Shown: positions 73-21,222 of the stretch, in pieces
How the letters are laid out: every line of letters starts with the position of its first letter
Position numbering within the stretch: the stretch's first letter is position 1
Notes under the pieces: model-generated
What the model was told of the DNA's origin: nothing
The model's database searches: none
What the model saw: only the letters and a program-made list of their open reading frames with translations
Program-made: the position numbers and the translations under genes
Assembly: GCF_018420025.1 (NCBI RefSeq)
Contig: NZ_JAEDAM010000010.1
Location: 1-21,222 of the forward strand
Origin: Candidatus Vampirococcus lugosii
GTDB taxonomy: Bacteria > Patescibacteriota > Gracilibacteria > Absconditabacterales > Absconditicoccaceae
Direction of reading: 5' to 3'
DNA: 21,222 nt

Positions 73-194
73 AAAAGAATTTTATATCAATAGATGCAAC
101 AAAATCTCCAATTGATATAAAAAATTATATAAATACTCTTATATAAAAAATTATTATAATATTTTTAAGATTTGTTTTTAAGTATAAATAATAT

Positions 195-214
195 AATTTT
201 TCTAATCTTCTGCA
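195..214. repeat. Left terminal inverted repeat of the IS remnant
   Basis: aatttttctaatcttctgca is the reverse complement of 980-999 (tgcagaagattagaacaatt) with one mismatch (199 vs 995). The 15-bp perfect core is ttctaatcttctgca. Confidence 0.65.
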
Positions 215-306
215 GTAAAAAGATAAAAAAAGTTTGAAAAGTTAATTAAGAACTAATAAAAACAATAAATCAAAAAGGTGGAATTATTGGAAATTTATGA
301 AAAAAT

Positions 307-978
307 ATGTATAAAGGAAGCATTAAACTTAAGTTTAAATGCTTTATAGTATGTATGAGAAAAAATAGATATGTAAAAATTAAGTGAAAAACAGTATGGA
401 TAGAGAACTCAATTAGTTATTTGAGAAGCTTGAAAAAGGAGGTAGAGATAAGTCTGAAAGGAGGCAAGAAAATGAGAGGAAAACTTTACTATTGAATGGT
501 AAAGATATTTGACTCAAACACTAAGAGAAAATATTATTTGGTGGTGATAAAAAATAATAAATGACAAAGAATGTTTCTTACAAACAAAAAAGTATGAAAT
601 GCAAAAGAAGCTATGGAAGTAATAAAAGTATATAGTTATAGATGGTTAATAGAAGAAACATATAAATATTTAAAACAAGAATATAATTTAGAGAAAATAC
701 ATTTAAGAAGTGAAGTTGAAAGACTAAATAATTATTATAATATATTACTATCATCAATATGATTAGCTATGGTATGATTGGAAATAGTATGAGCTCAGGT
801 TAAAGAAATGATATTAGAATTAAGGAAAGAAGATTGTATGTGATATAAACTAAAAAATATAATGTATGCCTGGTTAGAAGTAGTTGAATATATATTACAT
901 AATTGAAAATTTTTCCGAAATAGAAATCAAAGAAATTACCTACAGAATCAACAAAATTCACTCTTTTCTTTAATTTAG
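307..978 (+). pseudogene. DDE transposase fragment, C-terminal part only, IS4-like Y-x2-R-x3-E-x6-K signature
   Basis: Frame 1 is open from 250 to TAG 976-978 when TGA is sense; the first ATG is at 307. The translation contains ...KYYLVVIKNNKGQRMFLTNKKVGNAKEAMEVIKVYSYRWLIEETYKYLKQEYNLEKIHLRS... The segment YSYRWLIEETYKYLK fits the IS4-family YREK motif exactly, preceded by the typical LTN segment. The two N-terminal catalytic Asp regions are absent, so the gene is truncated. Confidence 0.6.
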
Positions 979-979
979 G

Positions 980-999
980 TGCAGAAGATTAGAACAATT
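980..999. repeat. Right terminal inverted repeat of the IS remnant
   Basis: Reverse complement of 195-214 (19/20), lying immediately after the transposase stop codon. Confidence 0.65.
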
Positions 1000-1153
1000 T
1001 TAAATTGATTTTTAAGTTTATTTGGATTTTTTTTTTAAATTCTAATTCTTTTATTTTTTGTCATATAATATATATTTTTTTATAAAAAATGATTATAACT
1101 TTACAAGTCCTGATTAAATTCTAGGTTACACAAGACTTTTTAAAAAAAATTAA

Positions 1154-1204
1154 TTTATTTGATTTTTTTATACATATTAAATATAATTTTATTTGATTTT
1201 TTTA
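1154..1204. repeat. Two copies of a 17-bp direct repeat, tttatttgattttttta, spaced 34 bp
   Basis: Exact copies at 1154-1170 and 1188-1204. A degenerate third copy (tttatttggatttttttttt) lies at about 1017-1036. All sit in the region between the IS remnant and the giant gene. Confidence 0.6.
1159..1187 (+). promoter_or_regulatory. Candidate sigma70-type promoter (TTGATT-17 nt-TATAAT)
   Basis: TTGATT at 1159-1164, a 17-nt spacer, then TATAAT at 1182-1187, about 80 nt upstream of the giant-gene start. The -35 lies inside copy 1 of the 17-bp repeat. AT-rich background makes chance hits likely. Confidence 0.3.
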
Positions 1205-1221
1205 CTAATAATTCTTATAAT
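1193..1221 (+). promoter_or_regulatory. Second candidate sigma70-type promoter (TTGATT-17 nt-TATAAT)
   Basis: TTGATT at 1193-1198, a 17-nt spacer, then TATAAT at 1216-1221. The -35 lies inside copy 2 of the 17-bp repeat, about 45 nt upstream of ATG 1266. Confidence 0.3.
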
Positions 1222-1265
1222 TAAAATTGATTAATATTTATTTTGTATTTTTAAGAAAAATTTTG

Positions 1266-1775
1266 ATGTTTAAACATATGGAAAAAAATAATAATGAAAT
1301 TAAAAAAAGAATATTTGTATTTTTATTTTTAATTATATATTTGTCATCTTTTTTGTTAAATAATTTTATATTTTTTTTGTGGTGAAATGTTTCTGCTTAT
1401 ACTCCCAAAGATACTAATAATAATTTAGTTGCTGTTTTGGTCGATTCAGATATTTATAATTGATGAGTGTGAAACGATATTAAACGGTATGCTCAAAATT
1501 ATATTCAATGATCTATTTCGGATAGTAAAGCTATAATAATTCCTGTTAATATTGATAATTTTACTGCTCCTGATATTGTAAAAATATTGCAAAATTTGTA
1601 TTTTGAATGACAAAAAGATGCACCTTCATCTTTGATATGAACAATTTTAATATGAGATATACCTTTACCTGTAGTTAATAATAATAAATTTATTTATCCT
1701 AATATTTTCCCTTATGTGAATTTTGAAAAAAATAAATATGTATATGATAATAATACTTGATTTTTTTGTAAATAA
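1266..1775 (+). CDS. N-terminal segment of the giant surface protein (signal anchor plus start of an alpha/beta domain), ending in a frameshift-induced stop
   Basis: The frame with position mod 3 = 0 runs ATG 1266 (alternative ATG 1278) to TAA 1773-1775 with TGA as Gly. It reads MFKHMEKNNNEIKKRIFVFLFLIIYLSSFLLNNFIFFLWGNVSAYTPKDTNNNLVAVLVDSDIY...LIGTILIGDIPLPVV...YVYDNNTGFFCK*. The basic N-terminus followed by a hydrophobic stretch of about 22 residues indicates a signal anchor. Confidence 0.7.
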
Positions 1776-4700
1776 TTGAAATAAAAGTTCTACTCCTGAT
1801 ATTTGGCATTGATTAATAAGATTTGATTCAAATAGTGAATATTCAGATTTCTTTAATAAATTAAAAAATTATTCATCTGATCCAGAATCTTATGTAGATA
1901 AGAAATTTTGGTTTGAAGATTTTGTAATGTTGCAAGATTATTTTAATGATCATAATCTTTCATATTATCTTAATAATTTTATTTTTATGGAAGATTTGAT
2001 ATATAACAGATATACAAATTTATTATTAGAGGTCTTACAATGAGGTTATATAAATAATCTTACTAAAAAAATAAATGATTTTGATTCTTGAATTGATGAT
2101 TTGAGACAGAGAGCAAATCAAAATATGGAATGAAAATGAGAAACTTTTAAAAATTTATCTGATGAATATTTTGATCAAGCTGAACATATATCTTCTTTTT
2201 TTGAAGAGGAAGAAGTAGCAAATGCAACAAAAGATTCATGATGAGTACCTACTTTGATGGTAAGAGAAAATGTAGAATCATTATTTAAGTCTTATAATGA
2301 AGTTTTTGGTCAAACATATTTTTCACAAATGAGAGATAATGTTTTAGCATCTTGAAGATGGGATACTGAAGATTTATGAAGTCATGTAGATAAAATATTT
2401 GTTCAAGATCAAACTTCTCAAGAATTCTTATATAGTATTAATGAATCATTGGAATCTGCTGTTGATGAACAAGTGGCAGAAGAAGAATATTATATGACTA
2501 TTCCTGTCCCTAGTTTTTATATAGAAGATGAATTTGAAGAAGATAAAAAAGAATTTGAAAATTTTTATTTTGGTAAAGCACTTACTGAAATAATTTCTGC
2601 TCAAGATTTTTCAATATTTAATTGAAAATTTGGTAATTATTCTATTGAAGATTTAGATTCTTATTCTTTACAAGATCGTGAAGAATACGAACATACTCAA
2701 TCTATTGGTTCTACAACTTGAATTTTGGATGCTCAAGTTATAGCAAGTAGATGATATAATTTGTCTATTGCACAAGAAGAATATGACCTTTATGAAAATA
2801 CAAAAAGATGATGAGAAAATGAACAAGAACGGGCAGAAAGACGATGGTGATGAGCATCTCCTCTAAATCTTGATTATGATCAATTTCCTGATTATATTCT
2901 AAAATCTTTTGATAGATATAATACTTGGAATCCATATTGGAATAGAAATATATGATGAACTATATATGATGTAGCTTGATCTATACAAATTGATGAAGAA
3001 GAGGAAGAAGCTTATTCATACTTATGATATCCTAAATATTCTACAAATGTAAGAGTTAAAGAAGATGATGAAGAAATAGAATATATAAAAAAATGAAATA
3101 CTAAAGTAAATAAAATAAAAGAATATTCTGAATTAGATTTTTTTAATGTTTATACAAAAAAACCTCAAGATTTTAATACAGAACATTTTCCTTTGCCTAA
3201 TATGATTCCTCCTAAAGAAATGATAATCGGTCTTCATAATGCTGAACAAGAATTTTTTGATTTTGAAAAATGATGAACAGAAATTGATTATATTGATCCT
3301 AGTACCGTAGTATGATCTTGAACTTATAGTGAATGATATTCAATTTGAACTTTTGAATGATTAAAAGATGCACATTGATGAAGTTCTAATTGTGTTGATA
3401 ATTCTTCTTGTCCTTATGTTTGAGATCATAGAGCTGATGAATTTAATGATTGATTTAATGATTGATACAATAAATGATTTGATTATATGAATTGATATTT
3501 GGATTGAGTTTCAGATTGAGAATCTGATATTTGATGAACAAAATATGATTCAAAAAATATTCCTGATTGAGCTTCTTCTGATTATGTTCTATGATATGAA
3601 GAATGATATGAAGATTGATATCATGATTGACTTTTGAAAAAATTTAATTCTGAATGGGATGATGTAAAAAATGAACATGATTGAGTGTTTGATCCATTTA
3701 TGTTTGGTATGTCAGATGAATTTGATATTAATGTTTTGGGTTTGCCAGATCCTGATATGATGGATATTTATAATTATTTTTATGATACTATAGAAACTAG
3801 AGTTTATAATAAATCTGTAACTAAAGAAAATCTTTTGTTAAAAACTCTTACTACAGTAAATAGAGCAATTGATAGTTTTAGAAATATGACATTTAAATGA
3901 GTTTGATGAGATGTAGTAGAATTTTTCTATCCAAATGTTTTTGAAACAGAATTATATAATGATTTATGAGATACTTTGGAACTTAAAGATTATGATTCTA
4001 TAAAACCTGCTGTTGAATGATATTTAAAATGAAAAGTAGATGAGTATAATGATATATTAAATGAAAATTGGGATAATAGATTATTTGAATATTCTTCAAA
4101 TATGATGGCTTATGATTTGCTTCATCAATATGATCCTATGGCTATGCCACTTTATCATGATTATGAATGAATGTGAACAACTCCACAAGCATGTCATTTT
4201 TTTGATGATGATTATGAATATGTAATTTGGCAAATTTCTGAATATGATGAATCTTATATAAGAAATGATATGTTAGATCTATTAGCATGAGATGTTAATT
4301 ATTTTAATACTTACCCTAATAGAAGTTGAGATTGAACGACTCATCCTGATGATATTGATGAGCGACCTATAGAAGATGTTGTTGAATATATACTTGATAA
4401 TTTTAGTTTTAAAATTGATTATTTAAAATATCATTATGCATCTACTTATCCATGAAGAGTTGCTTGACAACTATCAAGTGATTTAAATTATTATAATCAA
4501 TCTGGTTGTTATACAGAACATAAATATGAATTATTTGAAGAAGATCATTTTATAGATACATTATGAGATGAAAATATACAAAGAATAGTTGATAATTTAT
4601 ATTATATTAATATGTGATGGTCAACTAGAACTAAACAAGATAATGTACTTGATAATTTTGATCAAATAAAAAAAGATTTTAATATTGATGAAAAAATAGA

Positions 4701-7700
4701 ATATATATTAGATATGCATTTGGAAAATGATGCAAATGATGATATTGTCTCAAATCCTAATTATTGACAAAATGGTTATGAAGTATGATTTATATCTTCA
4801 AATTGAGCTGATAGTGTTTATTTATGAGCAGATGATGAATGATATTGAACTTCATTACCAGATGATCTTAAAGATTTACAAAATGCTATTTCTTCATGAA
4901 AATCTTGATCTTCAGGTGAAGATTGATTTGATGATTTTAATATAGAAAGTAATTTATCTACTATGCTTTGATATTCAGAACTTGAAGAACAGTGTTGAGT
5001 TCCACCTGGTTGAGCAGTAGATCTTTGGGAATGGCCATCTGCTTTTACATGTTGGTTAAATGAAACATTATCCAAACCTGTTTCAATAGAGTTTTCAAAT
5101 TCTTGTACTATGGGACCTAGTTTTGAAGATTTATGAGAAACTTATGATACTGATTTTTATTCTTCATCTTGATCTGATTGAGATTTTAGTAGTGATGAAG
5201 ATGATTGAGATGATAAAAGTTTTGCTGATAATAGTATTTATTGAAATTCTTGATGAAAACTTTCAAATATAGAAATTGAAACTCCAACTGATACTTTAAT
5301 TAAATGATGACAATTACCTATACAATTAAATGCTTTTGATGAAGATACTAGACCAATGTGAATGACAGTTCCAACTTATACTTTGTCAATTCAAGATGAT
5401 GAATGAAATGTGCTATGAAATTTTTTGGCTTGATGAAATTCTTTTGAAAAAATAAATGTAAGTAATTTTAATTCTTATTATTTATTTGATAGTTCAGATA
5501 TTCCTGATAATTTAGATTCTGTAAATATAGTTTTGGAAATTGATCCTTTTTATGAAAATTTTGATTATCCTCAAAAGATTGAAAAAACTATAAGTCTTCA
5601 ATGAGTTTCTTGACCTAGTTTGGAAGATATAGAATATACTTTACCTAACTCTTTAGATGAAATTTATAATCAAAATGATTCTTGAAAACCTATTCCTATA
5701 GAATCAAAACTTATTCCATATTCAATAAATATATGATCTAGTATTTCTTCTCCAGTTACTGTTTATTCAAAAGATAAAACACTTTTGGCTTGAGAAATAA
5801 AATCTAATTGAGAATTTGAATTTAAAGAAAATTTTGTTATGGAAAATTGACAATTAGATTTTTATCTTCATCCAAGTTTTAAAGCTTGAGAAGATATTTT
5901 GATAGTAGATATTCCTTGAATTTGAGAATTAAATGCTAATATTTTGATAAATCCAGCTTCTATATATTCTTTGAATTTAAGTGTTGAAAATCCTTCTGTA
6001 GATGCATGAGATATTAATATTTGAAAAGTTGTATGAAAAGACTATTGGTGAAATGATGTAAAAAATTGAGGTAATATATTAGTTGAAGTAAGTTGAAATG
6101 CTACAATTCAATGAAATAAATCTACTACCGTTAATTCATGACAAAATTTTCAAATTAATACTGATAAACCTGGTGGTAAAGTTTATCTTACTGCCAAAAT
6201 AGATTGAAAAGATTTGGAAACTTATATTCCTGATTATATATCTTTTTTGGTTAAAGATACTACTTGGTGGGAAGAATGAAAAGATATTAATGTTATGTAT
6301 TTAAGTCTTTTTGGTTGAGATTGGGGAAATCAATGGGGATATTTTTCTGATAATAATAAATTTATGCAAAAAATGTTTTCTAGTTCTTCAAAAATGTTGG
6401 CTTCTACAACTATGCTTGTTGATCCTGAAAATATTAAGAAATTTAAATATATAGTATATCCAGATCTTAGTATAAATAATGTTTGAAATTATAAAAATAA
6501 TATTTCTATAGATAATTGAAATATTTATGCTAATTTATATCATAGAAATTGAAATATTTGAAAAATAAAATTATTATCTAATTCTGCTAATATACAAGTT
6601 TCAAGTGATTGATTTACTACATTTAGTTCAGATTGAATTTATTATGTTCCTGATAGTTTAGATTATAGAATTAATTTAAATGAATTTAATGATTGAACTC
6701 TTTTTATAAATAATGAAGAAGTTTTAAATTTACAAAATTGATTTATTCATAATGATTTGTCAATTTCTCTATCTGATAATTTTGAAAAATGAAAATCTTA
6801 TTGGGAAGTTAAATACAAAAATATAAATGTTTGAAAATTATTTTTTCATAAAAATTCTAATACTTATTCTTATTCTGATATAGAAAATTATGAATGACAA
6901 TTAATTACCGATATGTTTGTTTCTTGAAGTACTAATAGAAAATGATGAGTTTGAGTTTATGATCCAGATTCTAAGTTTTCTGAAACTAAATCTTATGATA
7001 GTATTGAACATTCAGATGATGAAAATAAAGATATTGGTACTAGAAATAATTTTGCTAATATTACAAGTTTTGCTAATTGAAATAATGTATGAGATGCAAG
7101 TAAACATTTTGCTTCTGAATTTGTAATTAATTTTGGTGATCCAGTATTATCAAGAATTGATAAAAATGATATTATTGATAATACAAATTACGATTCTTGA
7201 ATTTGAAAAAAAGTTTTTTCTGAAAGTAATGAAAGTATATTTAAAGTGTCAGATATAAATTATGATAGAAGTTGAAGAAAATGATTGGCAATTGCATATA
7301 GAAATTGAACAGTTAGATTATTAAAAAATTATGGTTGAGATGAACCTTTTGTTGATATGTGAGATCTTATAGTTCTTAGTGATTGAATAAAAGATTTTTA
7401 TGTATGAGATACTAATTGAAATTGATATGATGATATTATTGCCGTTACTAATAAAGATAGAATAAGAGTATTTGAAAATAATGATTGAATTATTCAAGCA
7501 AATTGAACTCCTGTTTGTTTAGATGTTCCTGGTTGACCAGAAGATTTTAGTATGGTAAATCAAATGTTTATTGAAGATATGAATTGAGATTGAACTGCTG
7601 ATATTGTTACAGTTGATAAAAATTGAGATATTAAAGCTTTTTATGATGGTTATCTTTCTGATTGAAAACTTTCTTGTCAAGATTGATGGCAAGATAATTT

Positions 7701-10700
7701 GGAACAAGAATTAATTGAAAGTTATGGTTTAAAAATTACTGATGAAAAATTTTATGATGATAGTTTGATGCATTGGAATACATTGGTAAATGAAAATGTT
7801 ATGGAAATTGATTTGGATGATGATTTATGTAAAAGGGATATTAATGCATTACAAAAATATATGAATCTAATTGATTCAGATAGTTATTGAACTAGAAATC
7901 AAATACAAAATATGATTAATTCTGAAAAAGATCTTACTAGTAATTTGAGTTATTATGATTTTGGTGTTTTTGATAATTTTAGGAAACAATTTGATATTCA
8001 AAATCAAATGTCTAAACTTTATATGATTGCTCAAGATGAATGAGAAACAGAATTTTTGAGAAATATTGAATATTGTCTTCCAATATCAAATAGCTTTAAT
8101 CATACTATTTGTGAAAAAAGTGAATCTGAATTAGAATCTTTATTTGAACAATATATTGATGATTGACAGTTTAATTTGGCATTAGAAGTAGCTTTTTGTG
8201 AATATGATGAAGATATTTGTGATGAAAATAAATCTTTTGAAGAATTGATGCAAGATTTTGATGAATATGTAGAAAATGAAGAAAATGAAGATGCTATTGA
8301 AGTTGTATCTTGTACTTATGATGAAGATTTTTGTGATGAATATACTGATGAAGAAATTGAAGAAAATATGAAAAATCTTGCAAGTCAAGATGATGAAAGA
8401 CTTTATTCAAAATTTTTGGCATGTAAAACTTATTTTGACCACTATGATATATCTGGTATGTTTGGTGATAATTTTTTGGATGAAATAAAATATGAAATGT
8501 TGTCAAATGAATTTTTACCGATGTATTATAATCAATGGGATGATGATTTTGTGTATTATATTAAATCAAAAAGAGCTTGATTAGATGATGTAGATGAAAT
8601 TGAATTTTATAAAAATTTTGAAGCTGAAAATGAAGATATACAAGCTTGAGATGAAATAACTGTAAATATAAATATAGTAAATAAATCAAATAAAACAATT
8701 AAAGCCACATATTTGGAAAATTTGATGTGACCTTGGTCTATACTTAGACAAGAAGATGATAGTATATATTGATTTGATTTATGAGCTTTAAATGATGATG
8801 TTGTTATAAAACGGAATAATATACAACCATATCAATTTCAAATTGATAATATAAGTTTAAATCCTTGAGAAACTAAAACTTTTTCATTTCCAGTTATTTA
8901 TCAATGATTTGATTCTTTAAATGTAGAATTAGATACTATATGAAGTAATTGATGAAATTGATGATGATGAAATTGATGATGATGAAATTGATGATGATGA
9001 AATTGATGATGATGAAATTGATGATGATGAAATTGATGATGATGAAATTGATGATGATGAAATTGATGATGATGAAATTGATGATGATGAAATTGATGAT
9101 GATGAAATTGAGGAAATTCAAATCCTAGTCTTAAAGTTTATTCAGATGATCAGTGTATGCAATGATATGATTTACATACTAATTCATGATGATGATTTTC
9201 TTCTGAATTTGTAAATACTGGTCAAGAATACGAAGATTGGTTAACTGAACAAGAAGAGCTTGCACAAGAAGTTTATGATGAAATGGAAGAAAAAATGCAA
9301 GAAATTAAAGATTCTGGTGATCTTGATAATTTTGATTATATAGAGTCAATGAACTCTCGGTCAACTAAAAATGTTTTAAATTCTGATAATCAAATTAATA
9401 TTGATATTTTTGAATGAAGTTTATCCGATAAGTGGAGTGATTATGAAACTATAGTTGATGGTTTATGTGGTTGATATGATTTTTCAGATTCTAGTTGTGG
9501 TTTAAATATTCCTATAAATAGGGCATTTTTTGCACCTTGATTTTATCAATCTTTTGTTTGTGTGCCATTGCTTGATAGATGACTACCAGTTTTTTGGCGG
9601 CCAGGTACAGCACGGAAGAGTTGAACTCCAGTTCCAGTTCCTAATGGAGCACAAAGTTTAGATGATCCTATACCAACTTGATGAGTTTATCCGTCTGCTG
9701 TTAGATTTTATGTTTCACCAACTTTGACAGGTAGTTTATGATTTGCTATTTGTGTATGATCATATACAGCTTGAATGACTATTCCGCCTCCTATGTGAGT
9801 TGTTTCTTGAAATTGTGTTGTTACAGCAATTAGTTTACCTTTATCTTGTGATAATGATGAATGAAATTGATGATGACAAGATCCAGATTGAAATCCATCA
9901 GATGCAGTTGTTGCAGATTGGCAATTTGATATGTACAAAAATGGTCAATGTAATGAAGATTTTTGACATTGAGATAGAAAAACATCACCAGCAAGTATAT
10001 GATCTACAAAAAACAATATTCCATGAGATTTATCATGAGAATATCTTTGATGACTTATTAATTTTGAGACAAAACCTAATAATGTTAATTTATCAAGTAT
10101 GGCGGATAATATTGGTTTGGACACTACTGAAATTAAATGAAAATGATGATTTACTTTAAAAATAGAATGATGATCCGTTAGAGGAATTATTCAATGTATT
10201 ATTGAAAAATGGATAGATAAACAAATAAGATATATTATAAATAATCTTACACAGATGACTATCTATATTTATTTACCTGATCTTAGTCAAGTAAGTGAAT
10301 GATTTGAAAAAGTTAATATTGAAAATTTTACAAATATTATTAGTGATGTTAATAATAGAATTGATTGATTATTAAATTCTATGTCTAATCCAGAATCTCC
10401 TATTGATTATTTACCATCTCAAGAAGTATATAGAAATTTATCTCAAACTGCTAGCAATCCTTTTGATGCTATATCTACTTTATTTAATGATATACCACTT
10501 ATTAATTTTGAAACAAGGAATATTTCTATACAAGTTCCTATGATATCATCTGAAGAAATTGAAAGATATCTTACTTATCTTAATTGACGGTTGGATAGAA
10601 ATAAATGAATAGTAGAAGAATGGACTAATATAACTGATAATGTTTCTATATGAGTCGATGCTAATGAACTTATAAATTCAGTAGAGAAAAATATAAAAAC

Positions 10701-13700
10701 TTTACAAGAATATAAAGATTTCCCAGCAAAATTATATGATTATATTCATATAATAGATAGATATCTTGCAGAATTAAGTTGTATAATAGAGACTTTTATA
10801 AATTGAATTGTTAATCGGCTTGAACAAAATGCAGCAAGATTTGAATCTTGGGTAGATTTTATTATTTTAATGATTGCTGTGATAGAAACTTGGCAAGTTT
10901 TGATTGATTTTTCTGTAAATTGGAGACAAAAATGTGCAGAATGTAGAGTAGATACTTATGACTTTTATTCTTGTGCATTAGGTTTGTTATGTATAGATTT
11001 ACCAATATTGCCTATACCTCCATTTAGACTTCCAGACATTATAATTGATTTATCTCATATTGATTTATCTGTAGATGTTTTATTACCAAGATTTAGATTT
11101 GAACCTATATCTGTTCCTTTACCAGAAATTCCAGATATTCCAAGACCTCCATCTGCTAATTTAGATGTAATTTTACCTAGTATACCAGAATTACCAGAAC
11201 TTCCTGAATTACCAGAAATACCTTCTTTTTTACCTACTATAGAAATAGAATTACCTTTATTGCCTCCAGCTCCTAAAATTCCTGAAATTCTTCCTCAGAT
11301 TGAAGTTATTGTTGATATTGCAGAATTTATATGAGAATTGTTATGTATTATTAAAGCATGAATTGGTATGGTTGCTGAATGGAATGTTAAAACTAGAATT
11401 GAGCAACTTACACAGAGAACAACTAGGGTTGATCCTTTTGATTCTTTAAAAACTACATTTCCAGATCCTCCATTGAAAGGTTTTGATATAAGAATTGATA
11501 GTTTTGTTCAATTACAATTTGAATTTGAAGAAATATATAATTTTGCAAAAGATTTAGCTGATCAAATAAATGAGCAAACTAATAAGCTTTGAGAATCTGT
11601 TCAAAAAAATAAAATTGAATTTGAATGATTTGAATGACTTGATGATTATGATAAAACTATTGATTTGAATTCTTATAATATAAATAAACCTGATATAAGA
11701 GAACAAGATAATTTATTTGCATTTGATGAAAGCTCATATGATTGAAGTATTCCTTATAAAAAAGCTTTTTCTTCGTTGAGAAGTTGACTTATGTATTTTT
11801 ATGAACAATGATATAACCTTGAAGCAACTCAAAAATCTAAAGATATAATTGATATGCTTGATACTGATACTTGAGTTAAACCAAATTATAAATGATTTGA
11901 TAAATTACAAAGTTCTTTTGATGAAGTGATTGAAAATGAATATGATTATTATGAAGATATTCTTTCACAAGTTTCTGATTGGGATTCATTTATTCAATCT
12001 TTAGATTCAAATCTTTTGATAAATAATTCTTATGAAAAAAATTATTCATTATGAGTAAATTTGTTTGATTGAAATCAAGATATAGTTGATAAAATATCTT
12101 CTCAAAAAAATCCTAAAGCTGAATATTTGGATATGAATATGCAAATAGTAGATGGTATGCAAAATGCTTTGGCAAATAATACTCCAGAAAGTTTAAATAT
12201 GGACTCCAAAACATATAAAAAAACTAATATGTATCTATCATCACTTAGTGAAAATATAAAACAAGTGAGACCACATTTTGAAGATGATATTCCTTTATCA
12301 AATTGAAATTCTGCTCCACAAAATAATGAATCAAATTCTAGATTAAATCTATGAGATTCATGAGTGGAAAGTGTAGATCCTAGTCAATATATGAAATGAT
12401 TTTTTGTTCAATGAAATGATTGAAAATATCATAATGTTGTAAAATGGAAAGAAAAAGGTGATGAAATATTTAAAAATTGAAATTATAAATTTGTTGATAT
12501 AAATGCTGATTGATGAAAAGATATTATTTTATGGGATGATAGTAATGTTTATATTAAATATTATGATCAAGAAGATTTTCATAATGAATGAAATCCTAAT
12601 TATAATACTGATCTTTATGAAACATTTTCAAATTTTAATACAGTTGATATTCTTAAAGCAAGAACTAATGACGATTGATATCGTGAAATAAACTGAAAAC
12701 TTTATAAAATTTGGTCAGATGAATATTGAATAAATAATTTTAAGAGAAGTTGACAGACATTACATAATGTTAGTTTTGAATGGGATTCATATGATAATGC
12801 AGATTGATATCTATTAAAATTTACTCAAAGAGTAGATTTGTTCCATGAAAAATATGACTTTTCTTCTGATAGTTTTGAAGAAAAATATGTTCTTTTGCAT
12901 CCTGATTCAGATTTGAATGAACTTAATATAAATGATAAATGAAATTTAAATTGAAATATTAATGAAATTATTGAAAATAATGAAATAGTTATGAATAGAA
13001 CTTTTAAATCAGATTCAAAAAAATTGAGTATTACTTTGGATAATAATGCAGTTGATGATAGATGGAATTATATAAAGATTATACCTTTAAATTTGGATTG
13101 AAATCAATTAAGTAAATCTTGACCTCGGGTAAATCAAGAAGTTTGATGAGTTCAAATACGGTCAGATATAACTTCTCCTTCATTATCTCCTAATATGTAT
13201 AAATCTGAAGAATCAATTTCATCATTAGATGATATGCAAGATCAAGAATTAATATCTAATTGAAATTTTATGGTTTGATATATAAATACTAATTATGATT
13301 TAGTATTTGATTGGGAAGATGATTGAAATATAAATTCTATGTCTATATCTAGTGAATGAAAATCTTATTCAAGTTCTTGAGCTTGAGATAATTGAATATT
13401 TTGAAAAAATGTAATATTTGATGAAGAAAATAATGCTATAATTATATCAGATTTATTTATAGATCAAGAAAAAACTATAAATTATAATATTTGATCTGTA
13501 GATTCTGCTTGAAATATTTCAAATAGAAATTTACAAGTTAAAATAAAAGTTCCAAGTATTAAAATTGATTCTGTAGAATCAGATTGAACTGCTATTGAAG
13601 TAATGGGTAGTTTATCAAATAGTATTGATGAATGAAAAGTTGGAATACAAGTAAATAGAAATTGAGTATGGCAAGATATTGAATCTAGTCCAGATTGAAA

Positions 13701-14205
13701 TTATTTATTTGATTTGGATGAAAATTGAAAAACATATAATGCTTGAAATTTTGTTCAATCAGAACTTATATGAATGTATCATAATGAAGAAAAAATATGA
13801 AATATTGATATAGAAAATGCTAATATTAAAATATTTGATGAGTTTGAAGATGATTATGAAACTTGAATTCATTTTAGAAATTCTGTCCCTACTATTTTTA
13901 TAAAAAATGATAATTCAGAAATATTTAATATTGTATTACCTATATCCGATTTGATTGATGTAGAAACAACTAGTTGAGATTATGAAATTAATCAATTGTC
14001 AGCTCTATATTCATGTGTTTATAGTAAACAAAATAATGATTGTGTTATTTATTATGATATTAATTGAAGAGTTGTATCAAATTCAGATTATTATATTACT
14101 TGAGAATATAATTTAAAATCTAATGGACAAATTGAATATTATATATATAATAATGAATGAACTAAAATAGTTAACTTTTTATTAGAATTATGAGATTTTA
14201 AATAA
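1714..14205 (+). CDS. Giant acidic exported/cell-surface protein (main body, about 4,160 codons) with FG-GAP/VCBS repeats, a poly(NGGGG) linker and a Pro-rich module; function unknown
   Basis: Line-by-line hand translation shows frame 1 (position mod 3 = 1) has no TAA or TAG from 1675 to TAA 14203-14205. By extrapolation from hand-counted lines it contains a few hundred TGA codons. The six frame-1 pieces in the supplied ORF track (3685, 7699, 8176, 10381, 10870, 11368) are collinear fragments of it. The first in-frame ATG is 1714 (others at 1738 and 1744), but the real N-terminus is probably 1266 in the upstream frame. Joined length is about 4,312 aa. Confidence 0.85.
1761..1767 (+). other. 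T7 homopolymer at the frame change between the two pieces of the giant gene
   Basis: Removing one T turns tga ttt ttt tgt aaa taa into tga ttt ttt gta aat aat tga, which joins frame 0 to the 12.5-kb frame-1 ORF without a stop. Confidence 0.6.
8947..9111 (+). repeat. Perfect 15-bp tandem repeat (aattgatgatgatga)x10 with partial units at both ends, encoding (NGGGG)n
   Basis: There are 10 exact units at 8956-9105, with partial units at 8947-8955 and 9106-9111. In frame the tract reads G S N G G (N G G G G)x10 N G G N S. Confidence 0.95.
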
Positions 14206-14235
14206 AAATATTTTAAATATTAATATAAATTATTT

Positions 14236-15036
14236 ATGAAAAAATATATATTATTTTGATTAGTATTTATTTTTGGAACTAATTTAACTTGGTGAGCTCT
14301 TTCTATTCCTTATGATTGTTGAGTTGTAAATCAAGAAAAAGATAGATATATGGAAATGTTTGAATCATTAGATAATGATATTTTATCAGAAGCTGAATTG
14401 GAACTTGCTTATGATAATCTTAAAGATTTTTGTTGTTCCAAATCTTATCTTGAAGATGATTGCGATTCTTGAGAGAGTAAAAAGTATCCTGAATCTCCTT
14501 ATTTATATGATCATATTGTAGATATATGATTTAGAAAACTTGATTGAGAAGAAGAACTTTTGTATGATTGAGTTGAACTTGATGAAAAATGACAAGAACG
14601 AAGAGAAGAAATAAGAGAATTGGCAAATAGTGAAGATATTGTCTCTCCACAAGTTATTAATAATACATTTGATCAATATTGGGATGTATGATGAAGTGAT
14701 TGAATGTATAGAAAATATCAATTACTTTGTAAAGAATCTTGACTTGTTCAAACTAAAGTATTTAGTATTTTTTCAGATGATACATCAGTTTCTGAACTTA
14801 CTAATGCATGTAATTGAATGTTGCAAGATCGTGTAGATAGAGAACTTACTTATGTTAAGTCTTTGATGAATGTTAGATGAGATCATTTTATGACTACTAA
14901 TTTGATAAATTACACAGATAAATATTTTGCAAGAAATAGATGAATAAGTTTATTGGAAAAGCTTGTACATTTTGAAGCACTATTATTACAAGTTACAAAA
15001 AAAGTTAATGAATGAACTCCTCAATGTTCTGGTTAA
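14236..15036 (+). CDS. Secreted Cys-containing protein of unknown function (266 aa)
   Basis: Frame 1 runs ATG 14236 to TAA 15034-15036 with TGA as Gly, checked codon by codon. The N-terminus MKKYILFGLVFIFGTNLTWG/ALS looks like a Sec signal peptide. The gene starts 30 nt after the giant-gene stop. I recognise no family. Confidence 0.75.
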
Positions 15037-15064
15037 ATTATTTATTTTGATTATATTTTAGTAT

Positions 15065-16471
15065 ATGAAAAAATTTATATTATTATTAATAATACTATAT
15101 AATATTACTATAAATAATATTTATGCATCTGATGAAGCATGTTTCAATACTCATCCAGAAATTAATGAATATATTGATTCTATGAGAGAAGTTATAAATA
15201 GTATTGAATGAAAAGATTTTTCTTCAGAAGAATTGTGATGAGATAGTATATCACAGTTTGGGCAAGGATTTTCAGATGTTAGTAGACAACTTTTAAGATG
15301 AACATATATGTCAGCTATTGTTATGAAAAACATAACTTTGGATGCTGTTTGATGACAATCATTTACAAATTTAAAAATGATTTTTAATTCGGGAGTTGCT
15401 ATTAGAGATTGGAAATTACTTTTGTATTTGGAAAGAGATCTTTCAGATAAAGCACCAAAAATTTGATATGCATGAATTCTTGGAGAAAAAATTAAAAAAG
15501 ATGAATATGAACAATATCAAGAAATTTTGGAAGAGATATATATTATTGATAAAATATCGTGATGGGACCAGAATATTACTTATTCTGATCTTTTACAATT
15601 TATTTGGAAATTTAATACTTTTTATAAAGAAATATATTTGGATGCAGTAGGACATAATAAACCAGATTTTAGCTTGGAAGAAATGGCAAATAAATTATTT
15701 AGAACTACAAAACTTAAAGTAGCAGAAATAAATAATGATGAATATCAAGAATTTAAAGAATATTATAGATTAGCAGTAGGATCAGATAATATTTGTGAAG
15801 ATAATTATTCAGAAAAGTTTTTGGAAAATATACAAAAAATTACTTGAAATTCTGCATTTGATTGATGATCAGCTTTGGATAAATTTTCAGAATCTTGGCT
15901 TTTACTTCAAGAAGTATTGAATGATGTTAGAAGTTCTTGAGAATTAAGTAGAGAATATGAAGAAAGAAAAGAAAAATTACTTAAAAGACATTATGGAACA
16001 ACTTTGGCAAATGATTTAATGTCTTATGAATGAACTTGGTGAGTTGGTATGACTAGAGATACTATTAAAAATGAAGTTTTGGATCCATTAGTTTCTTTTG
16101 TAGATAAATTGGAATATGTATCAAAAACTACCGAAGCAACGGATGAAGTTACTAAAGAACAAGTTGAGGAAAGTTTACAAAATAAACAATCTCGTGCAGT
16201 TGCAAAAGAAGCTTTTAGTGCTGAAATGACAAATACTTTTGATACAATATTAAGTATGCAACAAGAACAATTTGTTGAATCTACATTACAAGATCCTAGA
16301 CCAATTACTCATGAAATTCCGTTTTTAAGTAAAAGAGTTTATGAATGAGTAAAAGTTTTATGAGATAGATGAAATGCTGATACTATCATTTATAATCTAG
16401 GTAATGCATGTCAATATCAATGTGTAAATCATTGAAATCCTTATTCTGATTGTTGGTATGATAATAAATAA
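15065..16471 (+). CDS. Secreted protein of unknown function (468 aa)
   Basis: The mod 3 = 2 frame runs ATG 15065 to TAA 16469-16471, checked codon by codon. It contains the track ORFs 15638 and 16049. The signal peptide is MKKFILLLIILYNITINNIYA/SDEAC and the C-terminus is Cys-rich (NACQYQCVNHGNPYSDCWYDNK). The gap to the previous gene is 28 nt. Confidence 0.78.
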
Positions 16472-16499
16472 GTTATTTATTTTAAAAATAAAAATAAAA

Positions 16500-17741
16500 A
16501 TGATAAATAATTTCTTTAAAAAATTTTATGAAAAATATTTTAGTTATGTATTTTGGTGATTATTATTAGTTTTTGTAGTAATATTTTTTGTATTATTTTT
16601 TAATAAAGAAAATATTACAAATGATGAAAAAGTTGTTGCTCAATGAGATGACTCTAATATAAAATCTCATGATTTTGTAAATATTTTAAATAAAAATTTA
16701 GCGGATAAACAAATTACTAATAAGAAATGACTTATAGAAAATTACTGTAATACTATATTTAGTGATGAGCTTGAACTTATTGATTGATTTCAAAATATGA
16801 CTTTTTATTATACTCCTAAAAAATCTATTTTTTTACATGCATTATGTTCTCATTTGGAAGATTTTGATGAATCAAAATTTGATGAAACTTTTTTGAATTA
16901 TATTAATGATTGATATTTGGATGATATTTTGGACGAACCAGCTTGTGAATATGATGAAGAAAATGATATGAGTTGATGTAGATTTTCTTATTTTTTGCCA
17001 AAAATATTTTGAAATATTATAAATGAAGTATCAAATGTAAAATTAGCTAGTATATTAGGTATTTCTGATGAAGATATAGATGATTCAATTGAAGAATTTT
17101 CAAATATTTATTTTTGAGAATCTGAAGATATAGGCTGTGATGGTAAATATTATTTATATAATCAAGATATTGATGATTTGGAAACTATGCATTGTCAACA
17201 TCCAGATACTTATGAATATTTTTCCAAATATTTACAAGAGATATTGGAACTATTAACTTCTTCAAAAATATTAAATCCTTTTGAAATAATTGAAGCAGAA
17301 GTTGAAAATGAAGAATGTCAATTAAATTTTGATTCTGATTTAATTGTTTGTTCTTTACTTACTAATGATTATCAACGGGAAAATTTAAAAAATTTATTAT
17401 TGAATGAATTAATGTTTTATAATTTATTTATTACATATTTTCTTCAAAATTGAGATAATTCTTCTGTTACAGAATTTAAAGTTTGAGCAAATATAAGTGA
17501 TAATATTAAAGATTTATGAGCAGAAATAAAAGCTCTTGAAAATGAAATCTCAGTTTCTCAAGAATCTATAAATAGAACATGGGATATGTTGCAAAATATT
17601 TATTTTACTTTCCCAACTCATATTTGATTTATGGCTTATAGAGAAGATTTAATAAGATTTAGAAATGAATTTGCAAAAGTTTATACTCCTATTCATCAAA
17701 TGTATTCTAGATTTAGGAATGTTCAAGATACTAGAAGATAA
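16500..17741 (+). CDS. Signal-anchored (type II-like) acidic Cys-containing protein of unknown function (413 aa)
   Basis: The mod 3 = 0 frame runs ATG 16500 to TAA 17739-17741, checked codon by codon. It contains track ORF 17178. The N-terminus MINNFFKKFYEKYFSYVFWGLLLVFVVIFFVLFFNKEN provides one TM helix. The gap to the previous gene is 28 nt. Confidence 0.78.
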
Positions 17742-17767
17742 GTTTTTTATTATATAAATTAATAATT

Positions 17768-19681
17768 ATGAAAATAAAAATAAAATTTATTTTATCATTG
17801 ATATTAATTTCTCCTATGTTTTCCAATTCTTTTTCTTTAAAAGAATATTACGAAGATGAAACAAAAGATTATGATCAAGATTCTTTGCTTGAAGATCATA
17901 ATGAAAGTTCTTTTTTATGAAATATTTATACAAATTCACATAATTTGGTGAGAGAAACAAAATTAAAATCTGAAAAAGATAGTTTTTCATATGTTGTTGA
18001 TTATCTTTCTGATATGTATTCTTGTAGTGTATCTGAAGATGATATTTATAATATTTATTCTGTGTCTAATCCTTCTTTTGTTTATATTCAATCTTGAATG
18101 GATCCAGATTCTCAAATAAGTACTGATAAAGATGATTTTATAGAATCTTGTAAAAATGTAGTTAGGTGTTTCGGTGACAATAATGTGGATGCTATTGAAT
18201 GATATACTCAATCCACTAGAAATTTATGTACTAGTAAAGTAAATAGTATAGTTAATTCTTCACAAGATAATATAAGTAAAAATGAATCTATAAAATATGA
18301 TAATTCTTGATCCGATATGTTTATGAATTGAAGTTTGGAAAATAGTCCTTTTGATTTATTAGTTGATATAAAAAATATATGAGACACTCTTTTTGAAGAT
18401 AATGAAGAACCAGAAGAAATTAATTTTTATGAAACTGATTCTTGATGAAATTCAGATTGATCATCTTGATGAGATCAAACTTTATTAAATAAAACTTTAT
18501 TAACTCAAAATTTATGAAATAAAACTTGATTAAATTCTGGTTTATTGACTACTAATTTGTTAAATTCAAATTTATTAGCTTTAAATTCATTAAATTGAGA
18601 TTGAGAAAATCAAATTCCTAATGATTCTGTTTCAAATGGTTTAATAAATAATTTTGTTTGTAATGAAAATATTGATATAGTTAACCCAGAACAAATTTAT
18701 GAACAAACTAATAAAGATATAAATCAAAATTTAGAAGATATATCAAATGCACATGATGATCTCGTATCACAACTAACACAAAATGTACCAAGTAATGATA
18801 TAGATTTTGCATCAGACTGATCAGCTCAAGCTCTTGATAATTTTTTATGAAATCAATTTGAAGAACAATGATATGCAATTACTAATCCTGGTTGATGAAA
18901 TTGAACTTGAGATTTAACTTGAACATCTCCATCTCCTATTGATGGAATTGATCATAATAGTTTTGTTTCAAAGATAGGTTGAATGTGATTAACTGATTGT
19001 ATTAATGCATGAGATAAAGATAGTATATTTTGGATAAGAGTTTGTATGGTATATACAGAAACTACTTGAATAGTTGATCAAAAAACTATTATGGCAAGTG
19101 AAGAAGCAGTAGATGAAATTAATAATGTTTTATTAAATTTGAAAAGGACCTGATCTATTATGAAACATAAAAAAACTGATGAAATGCGGGAAATTGGTCT
19201 ACAAGATATAGAATTTAGTAAAATATTTGCTTTTGATTTAGTGTTAAAAACTAAACCAACATTTCCTTGAGATGGAAAATATAAAGAAGAAGCAAGAATA
19301 GCAGTTATTGAAGAAAAAAATAAAGAGTTTGAAAAAAAAATATTGAAATTATCAGAAAGTCCTGATCTTAAATCAGAAAAAAATAAATATTTAGTAAGAG
19401 CAAATCCAGCAAGGATGGAATGAGAAACTAGAGCTTGATGAGATACTTCAAATAGACAATGAAATATTGATTATTTGTCTTCTTCTCAAGAAGATATGAA
19501 ATTAGATCATGAAAAAGTATCATCAAATGAAAATGAATCTTCTATGTATGAGTATATGGATATTTTCCATTGATTTATAGAATTTAATCATGATTACTGG
19601 GAACAAAAAAATACAACTTTACATTCAATTGAAGATATATCTAGATGATTTAAAGAAAGAGTTGTTAGTTGAGGTTGATAA
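17768..19681 (+). CDS. Secreted protein of unknown function with a Leu/Asn pentad array (637 aa)
   Basis: The mod 3 = 2 frame runs ATG 17768 to TAA 19679-19681, checked codon by codon. The signal peptide is MKIKIKFILSLILISPMFSNSFS/LKEYY. The gap to the previous gene is 26 nt. Confidence 0.78.
18479..18598 (+). repeat. Eight imperfect 15-bp (pentapeptide) units
   Basis: In-frame reading of 18479-18598 gives TLLNK TLLTQ NLGNK TGLNS GLLTT NLLNS NLLAL NSLNG. The period is 15 nt and Leu sits at fixed positions. Confidence 0.5.
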
Positions 19682-19763
19682 AATAATTATAGAAAAATTT
19701 GTATTATTTAGTATATATGATATACTATATATAAATTTTATTTATTATATGTTTATTATAAAA

Positions 19764-20069
19764 ATGAAAAAAGAAGATAAATTTAAAATAGAAAAATCTT
19801 TATTCTTAAAACAAGAAACTAAAGATAAATTGATTAATAATTGGGAAAAATTAGACTCTTTTACAAAATATAAAATATTAAAAAAAGTAAAAGAATCTTC
19901 AGATTTGGAACATAAGTTATTTAATGATTTTTTTGAAAAAAATAAAGAGCCAGAAATTTTAATAAAACAGAAATTAAATAAAATAAAACAAAATCAAGTA
20001 AGAAAAATAGAAGAAATAAGTAGTTTAAATGCAGATTTAGAAATAGAAGATAAATTAAATAATATTTAA
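19764..20069 (+). CDS. Small Lys/Glu-rich protein with no signal peptide (101 aa)
   Basis: The mod 3 = 0 frame runs ATG 19764 (alternative 19749) to TAA 20067-20069. It reads MKKEDKFKIEKSLFLKQETKDKLINNWEKLDSF...ADLEIEDKLNNI. This is the 3' part of track ORF 19590..20069; the track's 5' extension overlaps the previous gene and looks spurious. It contains no TGA and no Gly codon. Confidence 0.6.
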   Translation: MKKEDKFKIEKSLFLKQETKDKLINNWEKLDSFTKYKILKKVKESSDLEHKLFNDFFEKNKEPEILIKQKLNKIKQNQVRKIEEISSLNADLEIEDKLNNI

Positions 20070-20089
20070 TATTTAAATTTAATATAAAT

Positions 20090-21016
20090 ATGTGATTTTG
20101 ATGATTGAGAGAAGAAATTAGAAGTAGCTTTGGTCTTGATGAACAAGAAGAAATTAAAAACAATGAAGAAAAAGAAAATTGACAAGAAAAAAATGAAGAA
20201 ATTGATTATTTTGACTTGCCAGAAGAGGTAAGAGAAGAACTTGCTAATGATTTTTTTGAAAATGTAAAAGATAAAATACAAGCATCTCAAGATGATATTA
20301 AAAAATTTGCAGAAGAGGAAGCATGATTGTTTTGATTATGAGAACAAAAAATAATAAATGAAATGAATCAAGAGATAATGGATTTTGTAGTACAAACTAT
20401 TTCTTGAGAATGATTTGATTCATATCAACTTAAAAATTCTTTATCTATAGATGATTATTTAAATAATTTAGATCAAGGTATACAAGAATTAATAGAAACT
20501 GGTTCCAAAAGTGATTTTGAAATATCAGATAATCTTAAAAATGAAATTAGAAATTATTTATGATGAGATAGTATTGATATTTCAATAAATGAAGCATTAA
20601 ATTCATGAAATGTGGAATGATTAGATGAATTACAATTTTCTAAATCTAATATAGAAGAGTCTTCTAATTTAATTTTTGAAAATATAAAAGATAAAATACA
20701 AGCATCTCAAGATGATATTAAAAAATTTGCAGAAGAAAATGCATGAATGTTTTGAGCATGAAAAGAAAAAATAGCAGATGAAATGAATCAAGAGATAATG
20801 GATTTTGTAATGCAAACTATTTCTTGAGAATGATTTGATTCATATCAACTTAAAAATTTTAAAAATATAGATGATTATTTAAATAATTTGGATAAAGGTA
20901 TACAAGAATTAATAGTATATGGGAATATAAATGATTTTAAAAATTGAGAATCTAAAAAAGAAGATGAAAAATGGGAAGAAGAATATTACTCATGAATTTT
21001 TAATCGTAATGAATAA
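20090..21016 (+). CDS. Acidic protein with an internal 140-aa tandem duplication and no signal peptide (308 aa)
   Basis: The mod 3 = 2 frame runs ATG 20090 to TAA 21014-21016 with TGA as Gly, checked codon by codon. It reads MGFGGLREEIRSSFGLDEQEE... and starts 20 nt after the previous stop. Confidence 0.7.
20253..20495 (+). repeat. Copy A of the intragenic duplication (period exactly 420 bp)
   Basis: 243 bp align without gaps to 20673-20915, with about 21 mismatches by hand count (about 91 percent identity). It encodes FENVKDKIQASQDDIKKFAEEEAGLFGLGEQKIINEMNQEIMDFVVQTISGEGFDSYQLKNSLSIDDYLNNLDQGIQELI. Confidence 0.9.
20673..20915 (+). repeat. Copy B of the intragenic duplication
   Basis: It encodes FENIKDKIQASQDDIKKFAEENAGMFGAGKEKIADEMNQEIMDFVMQTISGEGFDSYQLKNFKNIDDYLNNLDKGIQELI. 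The offset from copy A is exactly 420 nt, so the reading frame is preserved. Confidence 0.9.
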
Positions 21017-21059
21017 ATTTTAATATACATTAAACTCATCTTTGTAGAACAAAATTTCT

Positions 21060-21084
21060 AAATCCTTGATTTAGACAAGGATTT
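21060..21084 (+). terminator. First hairpin after the cluster (9-bp stem)
   Basis: aaatccttg (21060-21068) pairs with caaggattt (21076-21084) around a 7-nt loop. There is no clean U-tract, so this may be only an accessory structure. Confidence 0.35.
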
Positions 21085-21094
21085 GCAAGAAAAT

Positions 21095-21134
21095 AAAAAT
21101 AGATTTGTGTACTACACAAATCTATTTTTATTTT
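21095..21134 (+). terminator. Rho-independent terminator, possibly bidirectional
   Basis: A perfect stem of about 16 bp pairs aaaaatagatttgtgt (21095-21110) with acacaaatctattttt (21114-21129) around a 3-nt loop, followed by atttt. It has an A-run on the 5' side and a T-run on the 3' side. It is the only strong hairpin found downstream of the whole gene cluster. Confidence 0.7.
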
Positions 21135-21222
21135 AAATAATTTTTCTTGAAGCTCATTTATTTGTTATACTTTATTTATTCTCAACAAGTAAGTAATATC
21201 AAATTATTTATTTAATTTTATT

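Follow-up and report, generated by a model that had tools for sequence, protein, structure and literature searches.

The window, a complete 21,222-bp contig of Candidatus Vampirococcus lugosii, carries seven tightly spaced genes on its plus strand when UGA is read as sense: a giant gene (1266–14205), g2 (14236–15036, 266 aa), g3 (15065–16471, 468 aa), g4 (16500–17741, 413 aa), g5 (17768–19681, 637 aa), g6 (19764–20069, 101 aa), and g7 (20090–21016, 308 aa). The intergenic gaps are exactly 30, 28, 28, 26, 82, and 20 nt, and a consensus scan finds no terminator-like site in positions 1–20000 but one at 21090–21134 (+), a 20-bp stem followed by a T run (the fold z-score of the surrounding region, 21040–21150, is −8.4, although this region also holds a second hairpin). 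Upstream of the giant gene lies a 34-nt tandem duplication (1147–1232, +) bearing two promoter-like TTGATT-17-TATAAT boxes (1159–1187 and 1193–1221); both are real matches, but such matches are no commoner than chance in this AT-rich DNA (185 found, versus 195 expected from shuffled sequence), such that a promoter function remains putative. The contig uses genetic code 25, in which UGA is read as Gly: UGA makes up 7% of the codons of the giant gene and aligns with Gly in 43% of homolog cells and essentially never with Trp, which excludes code 4 (UGA = Trp).

The products of the first five genes begin with hydrophobic export signals and carry 5 to 8 Cys each (34 in the 4,163-aa main open reading frame [ORF] of the giant gene), whereas g6 is Lys/Glu-rich, g7 is acidic, and both lack export signals. 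Pfam, NCBIfam, and PHROGs searches recognize nothing in any of the seven products, and profile searches of the PDB with the giant core (see below), g5, and the giant N-terminal domain return nothing meaningful. The observation made in the first-pass annotation, i.e., a tightly packed run of seven genes, five of them with exported products, that ends at a strong terminator, is confirmed.

The giant gene is a single gene of 4,312 codons that is split (1227/1266–1775 plus 1714–14205) only by an extra T in a T7 run at 1761–1767; three-frame translation against P0018 and P0019 shows that a T6 run restores ...NNTGFFVNNGNKSS..., matching the ortholog P0018, and the N-terminal ORF (1266–1775) aligns with the N termini of full-length homologs. 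If the frameshift is real, however, the gene could be inactive in this strain. Following the signal peptide or anchor is a conserved N-terminal domain (1413–2616, aa ~50–450) with a predicted alpha/beta fold, a nearly invariant W-H-G motif, and the motifs LxGxxxIGDxPLP, PYxDF, and EIWHG. A phmmer search with the N terminus of the window protein hits 52 giant proteins, and the N-terminal ORF hits the giants of loci L008–L011. The AlphaFold2 model of this domain, which was built on a homolog (P0072) and not on the window protein itself, has a pLDDT above 85 for the first ~170 residues, and a Foldseek search of the PDB gave only weak matches, to gingipain and flavodoxin-like folds, with no E value ≤0.001.

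Farther along, positions 7261–7713 encode FG-GAP-like Ca-binding repeats (DxNGDGxxD): the motifs can be read directly in the translation, and the corresponding region of homologs hits Pfam FG-GAP_3, although the window protein itself has no FG-GAP hit at E ≤ 0.1. A perfect 15-nt tandem repeat of 10.8 copies, TGATGAAATTGATGA, at 8950–9111 encodes a (GGNGG)n linker in which every Gly codon is UGA. The most conserved part of the protein is a core (10111–11613, residues ~2800–3300 of the 4,163-aa ORF) consisting of a helical segment, an invariant CxxC, a PKWPDI-like block, a proline-rich LPxLP run, and a final Cys, with 60 to 80% three-way identity among orthologs and 42% identity to a further homolog (P0004). 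A transmembrane role for the hydrophobic helix in this core was rejected because the equivalent segment is charged in standard-code homologs. The C terminus, ...IVNFLLELGDFK, does not show an LPXTG motif followed by a hydrophobic tail, and no sortase is encoded in the window.

Together, the N-terminal domain and the CxxC/proline-rich core, the hallmark of the group, define a family with 426 cluster representatives that occurs in at least 301 species genomes. The 80 loci that we inspected are labelled Peregrinibacteria/Peribacteria, Gracilibacteria, Altimarinota, or Patescibacteria group, apart from two unassigned "bacterium" records and one "Nitrospirota" MAG. Homologs within this family carry surface-type domains, including SLH (cell-wall-binding), FG-GAP_3, Invasin_D3, and TSP3.

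Conservation of gene order, which had been set beforehand as a test of the module, differs among the neighbors. The order giant–g2–g3–g4–g5 is kept in three other code-25 lineages (loci L001–L006 and L009), at 45 to 58% identity and at much lower identity in L009. Homologs of g2 (7 Cys) and g3 are found only in code-25 relatives, and profile-profile comparison found no relation between them and the two other small families, here termed A and B, that accompany the giant gene in standard-code genomes. In contrast, homologs of g4 and g5 directly follow the giant gene in 68 of 72 informative loci (those with at least 3 kb downstream) of Peregrinibacteria/Gracilibacteria-type genomes, with roughly zero intergenic gaps (medians of −10 to +9 nt); three of the 72 loci (L008, L010, and L065) lack both downstream, as does L093, which derives from a separate look-up. 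In g4, which has an N-terminal hydrophobic anchor or signal and 8 Cys, the C-terminal ~190 aa are conserved clade-wide, and g5, also conserved clade-wide, contains the motif EIFxNGDxxDSxFDLLxDLxxIExxLF and a Cys-rich second block. The homology is reciprocal, in that profiles built only from Peregrinibacteria-type sequences recover g4 (E = 3e-8) and g5 (E = 2.5e-11) and no other window protein. No fold or PDB relative was found for g5 or the giant core, and an AlphaFold2 model of g5 from 16 sequences failed (pLDDT of 36). All partner proteins in all lineages carry Sec-type signal peptides, and neither g2 to g5 nor the A, g4-like, and B proteins display the G|FTLIE class III signal of prepilins; the idea that they are pilins was rejected. 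Finally, g6 and g7 (the latter with an internal 297-nt duplication) have no homolog in the locus of any other species: only a near-identical Vampirococcus contig (L092) keeps them, and different genes follow g5 elsewhere, such that the two are adjacent to the module but probably do not belong to it.

A link to type IV pili appears in standard-code relatives, whose recurrent order is [~500 aa]–[~200 aa]–PilB–PilC–prepilin (one to four copies)–giant–A–g4–g5–B. A prepilin gene lies within 1.5 kb upstream of the giant gene, on the same strand, in 26 of 41 standard-code loci (median gap, 181 nt), and PilB (T2SSE) and PilC (T2SSF) lie upstream in 12 of these 26. No pilus genes are detected in the window by tblastn, nor next to the giant gene in any of 29 code-25 loci.

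We consider it most likely (with a probability of roughly 0.55) that genes 1 to 5 (1266–19681) encode a lineage-conserved, Sec-exported cell-surface complex. In this view, the giant protein, with its signal peptide or anchor, N-terminal domain, beta-sandwich and FG-GAP-like modules, Gly linker, core, and C-terminal beta-rich tail, would act as the scaffold or fiber; g4 and g5 would be fixed partner subunits or assembly factors made from the same transcript, with g2 and g3 playing the same role within the Vampirococcus lineage; and the complex would mediate contact with the host or prey cell, having worked next to a type IV pilus machine in the ancestral arrangement. What the analysis establishes is the presence of export signals, the conservation and synteny of the genes, and their absence from known families, whereas co-transcription, physical association, surface location, and a role in host contact are inferred and without direct evidence. 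Published context is consistent with this reading: Moreira et al. 2021 (PMC8080830) inferred a membrane location for the ten longest V. lugosii proteins, this one included, and linked them to the fibrous cell surface. However, near-universal conservation of the core could equally point to a housekeeping role in the envelope.

The interpretation offered in the first-pass annotation, that of a dedicated extracellular assembly built around an integrin-like giant protein, is partly supported. The giant gene and its exported neighbors are a conserved unit rather than a chance neighborhood, but the suggestion that the two cytoplasmic proteins are chaperones or regulators has no basis, and the label "integrin-like" is weak. 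Its statement that no pilin or ATPase is present holds for the window but misses the upstream prepilin, PilC, and PilB genes of standard-code relatives.

Among alternatives, it is possible, albeit less likely, that the module is a type IV pilus accessory, with the giant protein as a pilus-associated adhesin, or a cargo deployed through the wall by a pilus-like piston, linked to the filament by the four small exported proteins in the manner of PilY1/PilC with the minor pilins. The gene order in standard-code relatives and the rich type IV pilus repertoire of V. lugosii (PMC8080830) favor this view, whereas the absence of adjacent pilus genes from the window and from code-25 loci, the ordinary Sec signals of the partners, and the lack of detectable similarity to PilY1/PilC speak against it. 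It is unlikely that the module is a housekeeping structure maintaining cell shape or wall organization, such as an S-layer-like or wall-spanning scaffold: the core, N-terminal domain, and gene order are conserved across at least 301 species despite a change in genetic code, homologs carry SLH domains, and the core contains a proline-rich segment that is, by analogy, of the kind that spans cell walls in Gram-positive surface proteins, but the long regions between conserved blocks diverge fast (0 to 20% three-way identity in several stretches), as would be expected of exposed, host-facing parts, the window protein has no SLH domain, and FG-GAP, invasin-like, and TSP3 modules are typical of adhesins. 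That the neighbors are unrelated genes merely packed behind a long gene, as the short gaps that are the rule in reduced CPR genomes and the example of g6 and g7 might suggest, is in effect refuted for g4 and g5 by their order in 68 of 72 loci across lineages that differ in genetic code and whose giant cores are only about 25 to 30% identical to a code-25 core, and remains possible for g6 and g7.

A bolder reading, which we regard as doubtful but not excluded, is that the giant protein and its four exported partners form a previously undescribed surface machine that defines this clade, shared by Absconditabacteria, Gracilibacteria, and Peregrinibacteria and ancestrally coupled to a dedicated type IV pilus, by which these episymbiotic or predatory CPR bacteria attach to their prey and open it. 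How CPR bacteria recognize, hold, and exploit their hosts is largely unknown and, apart from type IV pili in Saccharibacteria, few molecular players are known. This gene block would be a concrete candidate, holding the largest protein of the cell plus fixed exported partners and being conserved through a change of genetic code; the species that carry it include V. lugosii, which has been grown with its host (the other cultivated predator of this group is Absconditicoccus praedator). The core and N-terminal motifs and the g4 and g5 profiles also supply markers that could be used to annotate five protein families currently labelled "hypothetical," and the link to pilus genes in relatives provides a testable hypothesis.

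The giant protein itself has been listed before, as VAMP_16_20, a 4,163-aa hypothetical protein that is the longest of V. lugosii and is inferred to be membrane-located. Earlier work on V. lugosii and on Peregrinibacteria (PMC8080830, PMC9793634, PMC11573180, and PMC4736985) noted BLAST homologs of a long V. lugosii hypothetical protein (MBS8121701.1, probably this one) in other Gracilibacteria orders and flagged Peregrinibacteria as enriched in proteins above 5,000 aa that lack COG assignments. None of these papers describes the conserved N-terminal domain, the core, the frameshift, the conserved exported partner genes, or the link to pilus genes, and we found no description of the operon.

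Compared with the PilY1/PilC tip adhesins and minor pilins of type IV pili, the giant protein is likewise a large exported adhesin-like protein with Ca-binding propeller-type repeats, encoded beside pilin genes (in relatives) and accompanied by several small exported partners; however, no sequence similarity was detected, the protein is three to four times larger, the partners lack prepilin signals, and the pilus linkage is absent from the window and from code-25 lineages. The sprCDBF operon of Flavobacterium johnsoniae (the giant adhesin SprB with dedicated accessory proteins) and the Mycoplasma P1/MgPa adhesin operons follow the same logic, in which a very large surface adhesin is co-encoded with small exported proteins needed for its display or stability, but the protein families are not known to be related, the secretion routes differ (T9SS or a wall-less cell), and no homology is known. 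With respect to giant adhesins of the T1SS-secreted RTX/Bap type, no RTX or Bap repeats and no adjacent ABC, MFP, and OMP export genes were found, and the protein has an N-terminal Sec signal instead. The gingipain (Peptidase C25) catalytic domain provides the most specific, though weak, structural matches to the modelled N-terminal domain (RgpB and Kgp; E values of only 0.03 to 0.1 and TM-scores of about 0.24), and the family shares a nearly invariant His-Gly, but no conserved Cys nucleophile follows it, there is no Pfam hit, and flavodoxin-like folds score equally well. Finally, SLH-anchored surface and S-layer proteins resemble the Peregrinibacteria-type homologs in carrying SLH domains, whereas the window protein has no detectable SLH domain and the rest of its architecture is unlike that of known S-layer proteins.

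Translation with table 11 yields only short ORFs, whereas reading UGA as sense gives long genes on the plus strand. UGA makes up 7% of the codons of the giant gene, and in alignments with standard-code homologs it falls on Gly in 43% of cells and almost never on Trp, which confirms code 25. (Public protein collections hold code-25 relatives translated with code 4, including P0002, P0003 and P0018, which are homologs from related genomes, and many other giants recovered in our searches; in these, Trp stands at every UGA, giving 5 to 8% W and about 1% G, which degrades homology searches and structure prediction for these lineages.) V. lugosii is an epibiotic predator of the Absconditabacteria (PMC8080830).

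The plus strand carries the giant gene (1266-14205) followed by g2 (14236-15036), g3 (15065-16471), g4 (16500-17741), g5 (17768-19681), g6 (19764-20069), and g7 (20090-21016), with gaps of 30, 28, 28, 26, 82, and 20 nt, respectively. No terminator-like site occurs before position 20000, and a 20-bp hairpin followed by a T run lies at 21090-21134; the fold z-score of 21040-21150 is -8.4, although this interval also contains a second, 10-bp hairpin (AAATCCTTGA...TCAAGGATTT) at 21059-21085, just upstream of the terminator hairpin. The first five products begin with hydrophobic export signals and contain several Cys, whereas g6 and g7 are charged and lack signals. Within g7, a 297-nt direct duplication (20233-20529 and 20653-20949, 86% identical) produces two copies of an acidic module of ~100 aa; UniRef names this protein "DUF5610 domain-containing," but our Pfam scan did not report that family. 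Promoter-like boxes exist upstream of the giant gene, where a 34-nt tandem duplication (1147-1232) duplicates a TTGATT-17-TATAAT promoter-like element, but such boxes are not above chance in this AT-rich DNA. The observation made in the first-pass annotation, that seven closely spaced genes form one apparent operon ending at a strong terminator, therefore holds.

The giant gene is split by one extra T in a T7 homopolymer at 1761-1767. With T6, the reading ...NNTGFFVNNGNKSS... matches the ortholog P0018, and the restored protein has 4,312 residues; the N-terminal ORF aligns with the N termini of full-length giants from other lineages. The extra base could be an assembly error, a recent pseudogenization, or slippage, and it explains why the database entry starts at an internal Met (4,163 aa instead of 4,312 aa). 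Farther downstream, a perfect 15-nt tandem repeat at 8950-9111 (TGATGAAATTGATGA x 10.8, 100% matches) encodes a (GGNGG)n linker in which every glycine is a UGA codon, giving about 43 codons in 162 nt that would be stops under the standard code.

Searches of Pfam, NCBIfam, and PHROGs recognize none of the seven products, and exact-sequence look-ups show that g2 to g7 are all deposited as hypothetical proteins. The upstream ORF at 307-978 (plus strand, 223 aa, with 9 in-frame UGA codons) matches the C-terminal part of the DDE_Tnp_1 transposase model (E = 4.6e-5) and is an IS remnant lying between the contig start and the giant gene. Moreira et al. list the giant protein as VAMP_16_20, a "hypothetical protein" of 4,163 aa, and infer that the ten longest proteins are membrane-located and responsible for the fibrous cell surface (PMC8080830). 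Another study reported BLAST homologs of a long V. lugosii hypothetical protein (MBS8121701.1, probably this one) in other Gracilibacteria orders, and a census of huge proteins noted that Peregrinibacteria are enriched in proteins above 5,000 aa that lack COG assignments. We found no description of the operon in the literature that could be searched.

In close relatives, the g3 homologs P0002 and P0003 (47 to 48% identity) lie in blocks composed of a giant gene and genes for proteins of 268/283, 466, 397/407, and 638/648 aa, which code-25 translation and BLASTP show to be orthologs of the giant protein, g2, g3, g4, and g5 at 45 to 58% identity. In one such locus (L001, 12651-14778), the g5 ortholog is intact (648 aa), but it is split into two overlapping ORFs by a frameshift or an indel variant in another assembly that carries the identical g3 protein (L002, 12651-14597). 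A more distant code-25 lineage (locus L009) keeps the same order, with phmmer E-values of 7e-20, 5e-7, 6.5e-33, and 1e-14. After g5, the neighbors differ: peptidase M17 and GrpE follow in locus L004, and other unknown proteins follow in L001 and L009. g6 and g7 have no homolog in any other species' locus, and only a near-identical Vampirococcus contig keeps them.

The most conserved stretch of the giant protein, its core, comprises residues ~2800 to 3300 of the 4,163-aa ORF (nt ~10111-11613), with 60 to 80% three-way identity. An exhaustive HMMER search with P0004, a table-11 fragment of a related core, found 426 cluster representatives, 313 of them at E <= 1e-10, most of which are proteins of 3.5 to 6 kaa with the core at about residue 2,400 to 4,200. 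The core has an invariant CxxC, a block resembling PKWPDIxIDxSxI, a run of LPxLP prolines, and a final Cys; a second conserved domain lies at the N terminus (aa ~50 to 450). A scan of one genome per GTDB species found 301 genomes encoding the core, and the 80 loci listed, all of which use the standard code, are nearly all labeled Peregrinibacteria/Peribacteria, Gracilibacteria, Altimarinota, or "Patescibacteria group." Among these loci, a MAG labeled Nitrospirota (L059, JAUVQE010000014.1) carries a typical Peregrinibacteria-type giant gene, and this contig is probably mis-binned. Homologs carry SLH, FG-GAP_3, Invasin_D3, and TSP3 domains, none of which is detected in the window protein at E <= 0.1.

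Iterated profiles of g4 and g5 found homologs in 73 and 71, respectively, of the 91 loci then in hand. These homologs always lie directly after the giant gene, in the order giant, A (~205 aa), g4-like (~210 to 340 aa), g5-like (~510 to 710 aa), and B (~340 to 460 aa), where A and B are protein families of standard-code genomes that flank the g4-like and g5-like proteins. Of the 72 loci with at least 3 kb of sequence after the giant gene, 68 have both, with median gaps of -10 to +9 nt. A few genomes (L008, L010, and L065 among these 72 loci, and L093 from a separate look-up) have the giant gene but no g4 or g5 homologs downstream, and in these the partners may be encoded elsewhere or may have been lost. 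Profiles built only from standard-code sequences recover the window's g4 (E = 3e-8) and g5 (E = 2.5e-11) and nothing else in the window; as such, the homology is not an artifact of iteration. A, g4-like, g5-like, and B proteins all start with ordinary Sec signal peptides. In contrast, g2 and g3 were found only in code-25 loci and show no profile-profile similarity to A or B. Thus, four exported partners follow the giant gene in both branches, but only two are demonstrably the same families.

In standard-code relatives, the giant gene is linked to type IV pilus genes. Four contexts with upstream sequence showed a prepilin (N_methyl) gene directly upstream of the giant gene, preceded in three of them by T2SSE (PilB), T2SSF (PilC), and two unknown proteins. 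A subsequent scan of metagenome contigs with the N-terminal domain gave 80 more loci. Among standard-code loci, 26 of 41 have a GFTLIE-type prepilin gene on the same strand within 1.5 kb upstream (median gap of 181 nt), and 12 of 26 loci with at least 4 kb of upstream sequence also have PilB and PilC; among code-25 loci, the corresponding figures are 0 of 29 for prepilin and 1 of 22 for PilB. The recurrent upstream cluster, seen at L011 (1782-8408), L093 (3409-9672), L132, L140, L158 to L161, and L168, consists of an unknown protein of ~400 to 535 aa, an unknown protein of ~190 to 230 aa, PilB, PilC, and one to four prepilins; the two unknown proteins have no Pfam hits and might be pilus alignment components. 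Two of the loci without downstream partners, L010 and L093, keep the upstream pilin. The window has no pil gene, its upstream side being an IS remnant and the end of the contig, and in one code-25 sublineage (L097, L098, L112, L113, and L121), a conserved same-strand trio of about 675 to 700, 250, and 140 aa precedes the giant gene in the position where standard-code relatives have pil genes.

An AF2 model of the N-terminal domain, built on a correctly translated homolog (P0072), is confident for the first ~170 residues, which are predicted to form an alpha/beta fold. Foldseek searches against the PDB give only weak matches, including gingipain R and K (E = 0.03 to 0.1) and flavodoxin-like folds. 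A W-H-G motif is nearly invariant in this domain, but no Cys is conserved after it, and we do not regard the domain as a C25 peptidase. The AF2 model of g5 was of very low confidence (pLDDT 36), and PDB sequence-profile searches for the core, g5, and the N-terminal domain were empty.

Taken together, these analyses establish a real and very widely conserved operon (as a gene arrangement) of a giant exported protein with exported partners, the absence of every component from the curated family libraries, and genomic linkage to a pilus assembly cluster in one branch; that the proteins assemble into one surface complex, and that this complex mediates host contact, possibly in concert with type IV pili, is inferred. 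The interpretation offered in the first-pass annotation, a dedicated extracellular assembly with a plausible role in host interaction, encoded in a module with two cytoplasmic proteins that could be chaperones or regulators, is only partly supported, and g6 and g7 should be removed from the proposed module. The main alternative is a housekeeping envelope role. A more far-reaching possibility, that of a clade-defining, pilus-coupled prey-attachment machine, is not excluded by the evidence, but we consider it unlikely on present evidence. In its overall plan, the module resembles systems already known, in which a giant surface protein is served by dedicated accessory proteins; its components are entirely uncharacterized.
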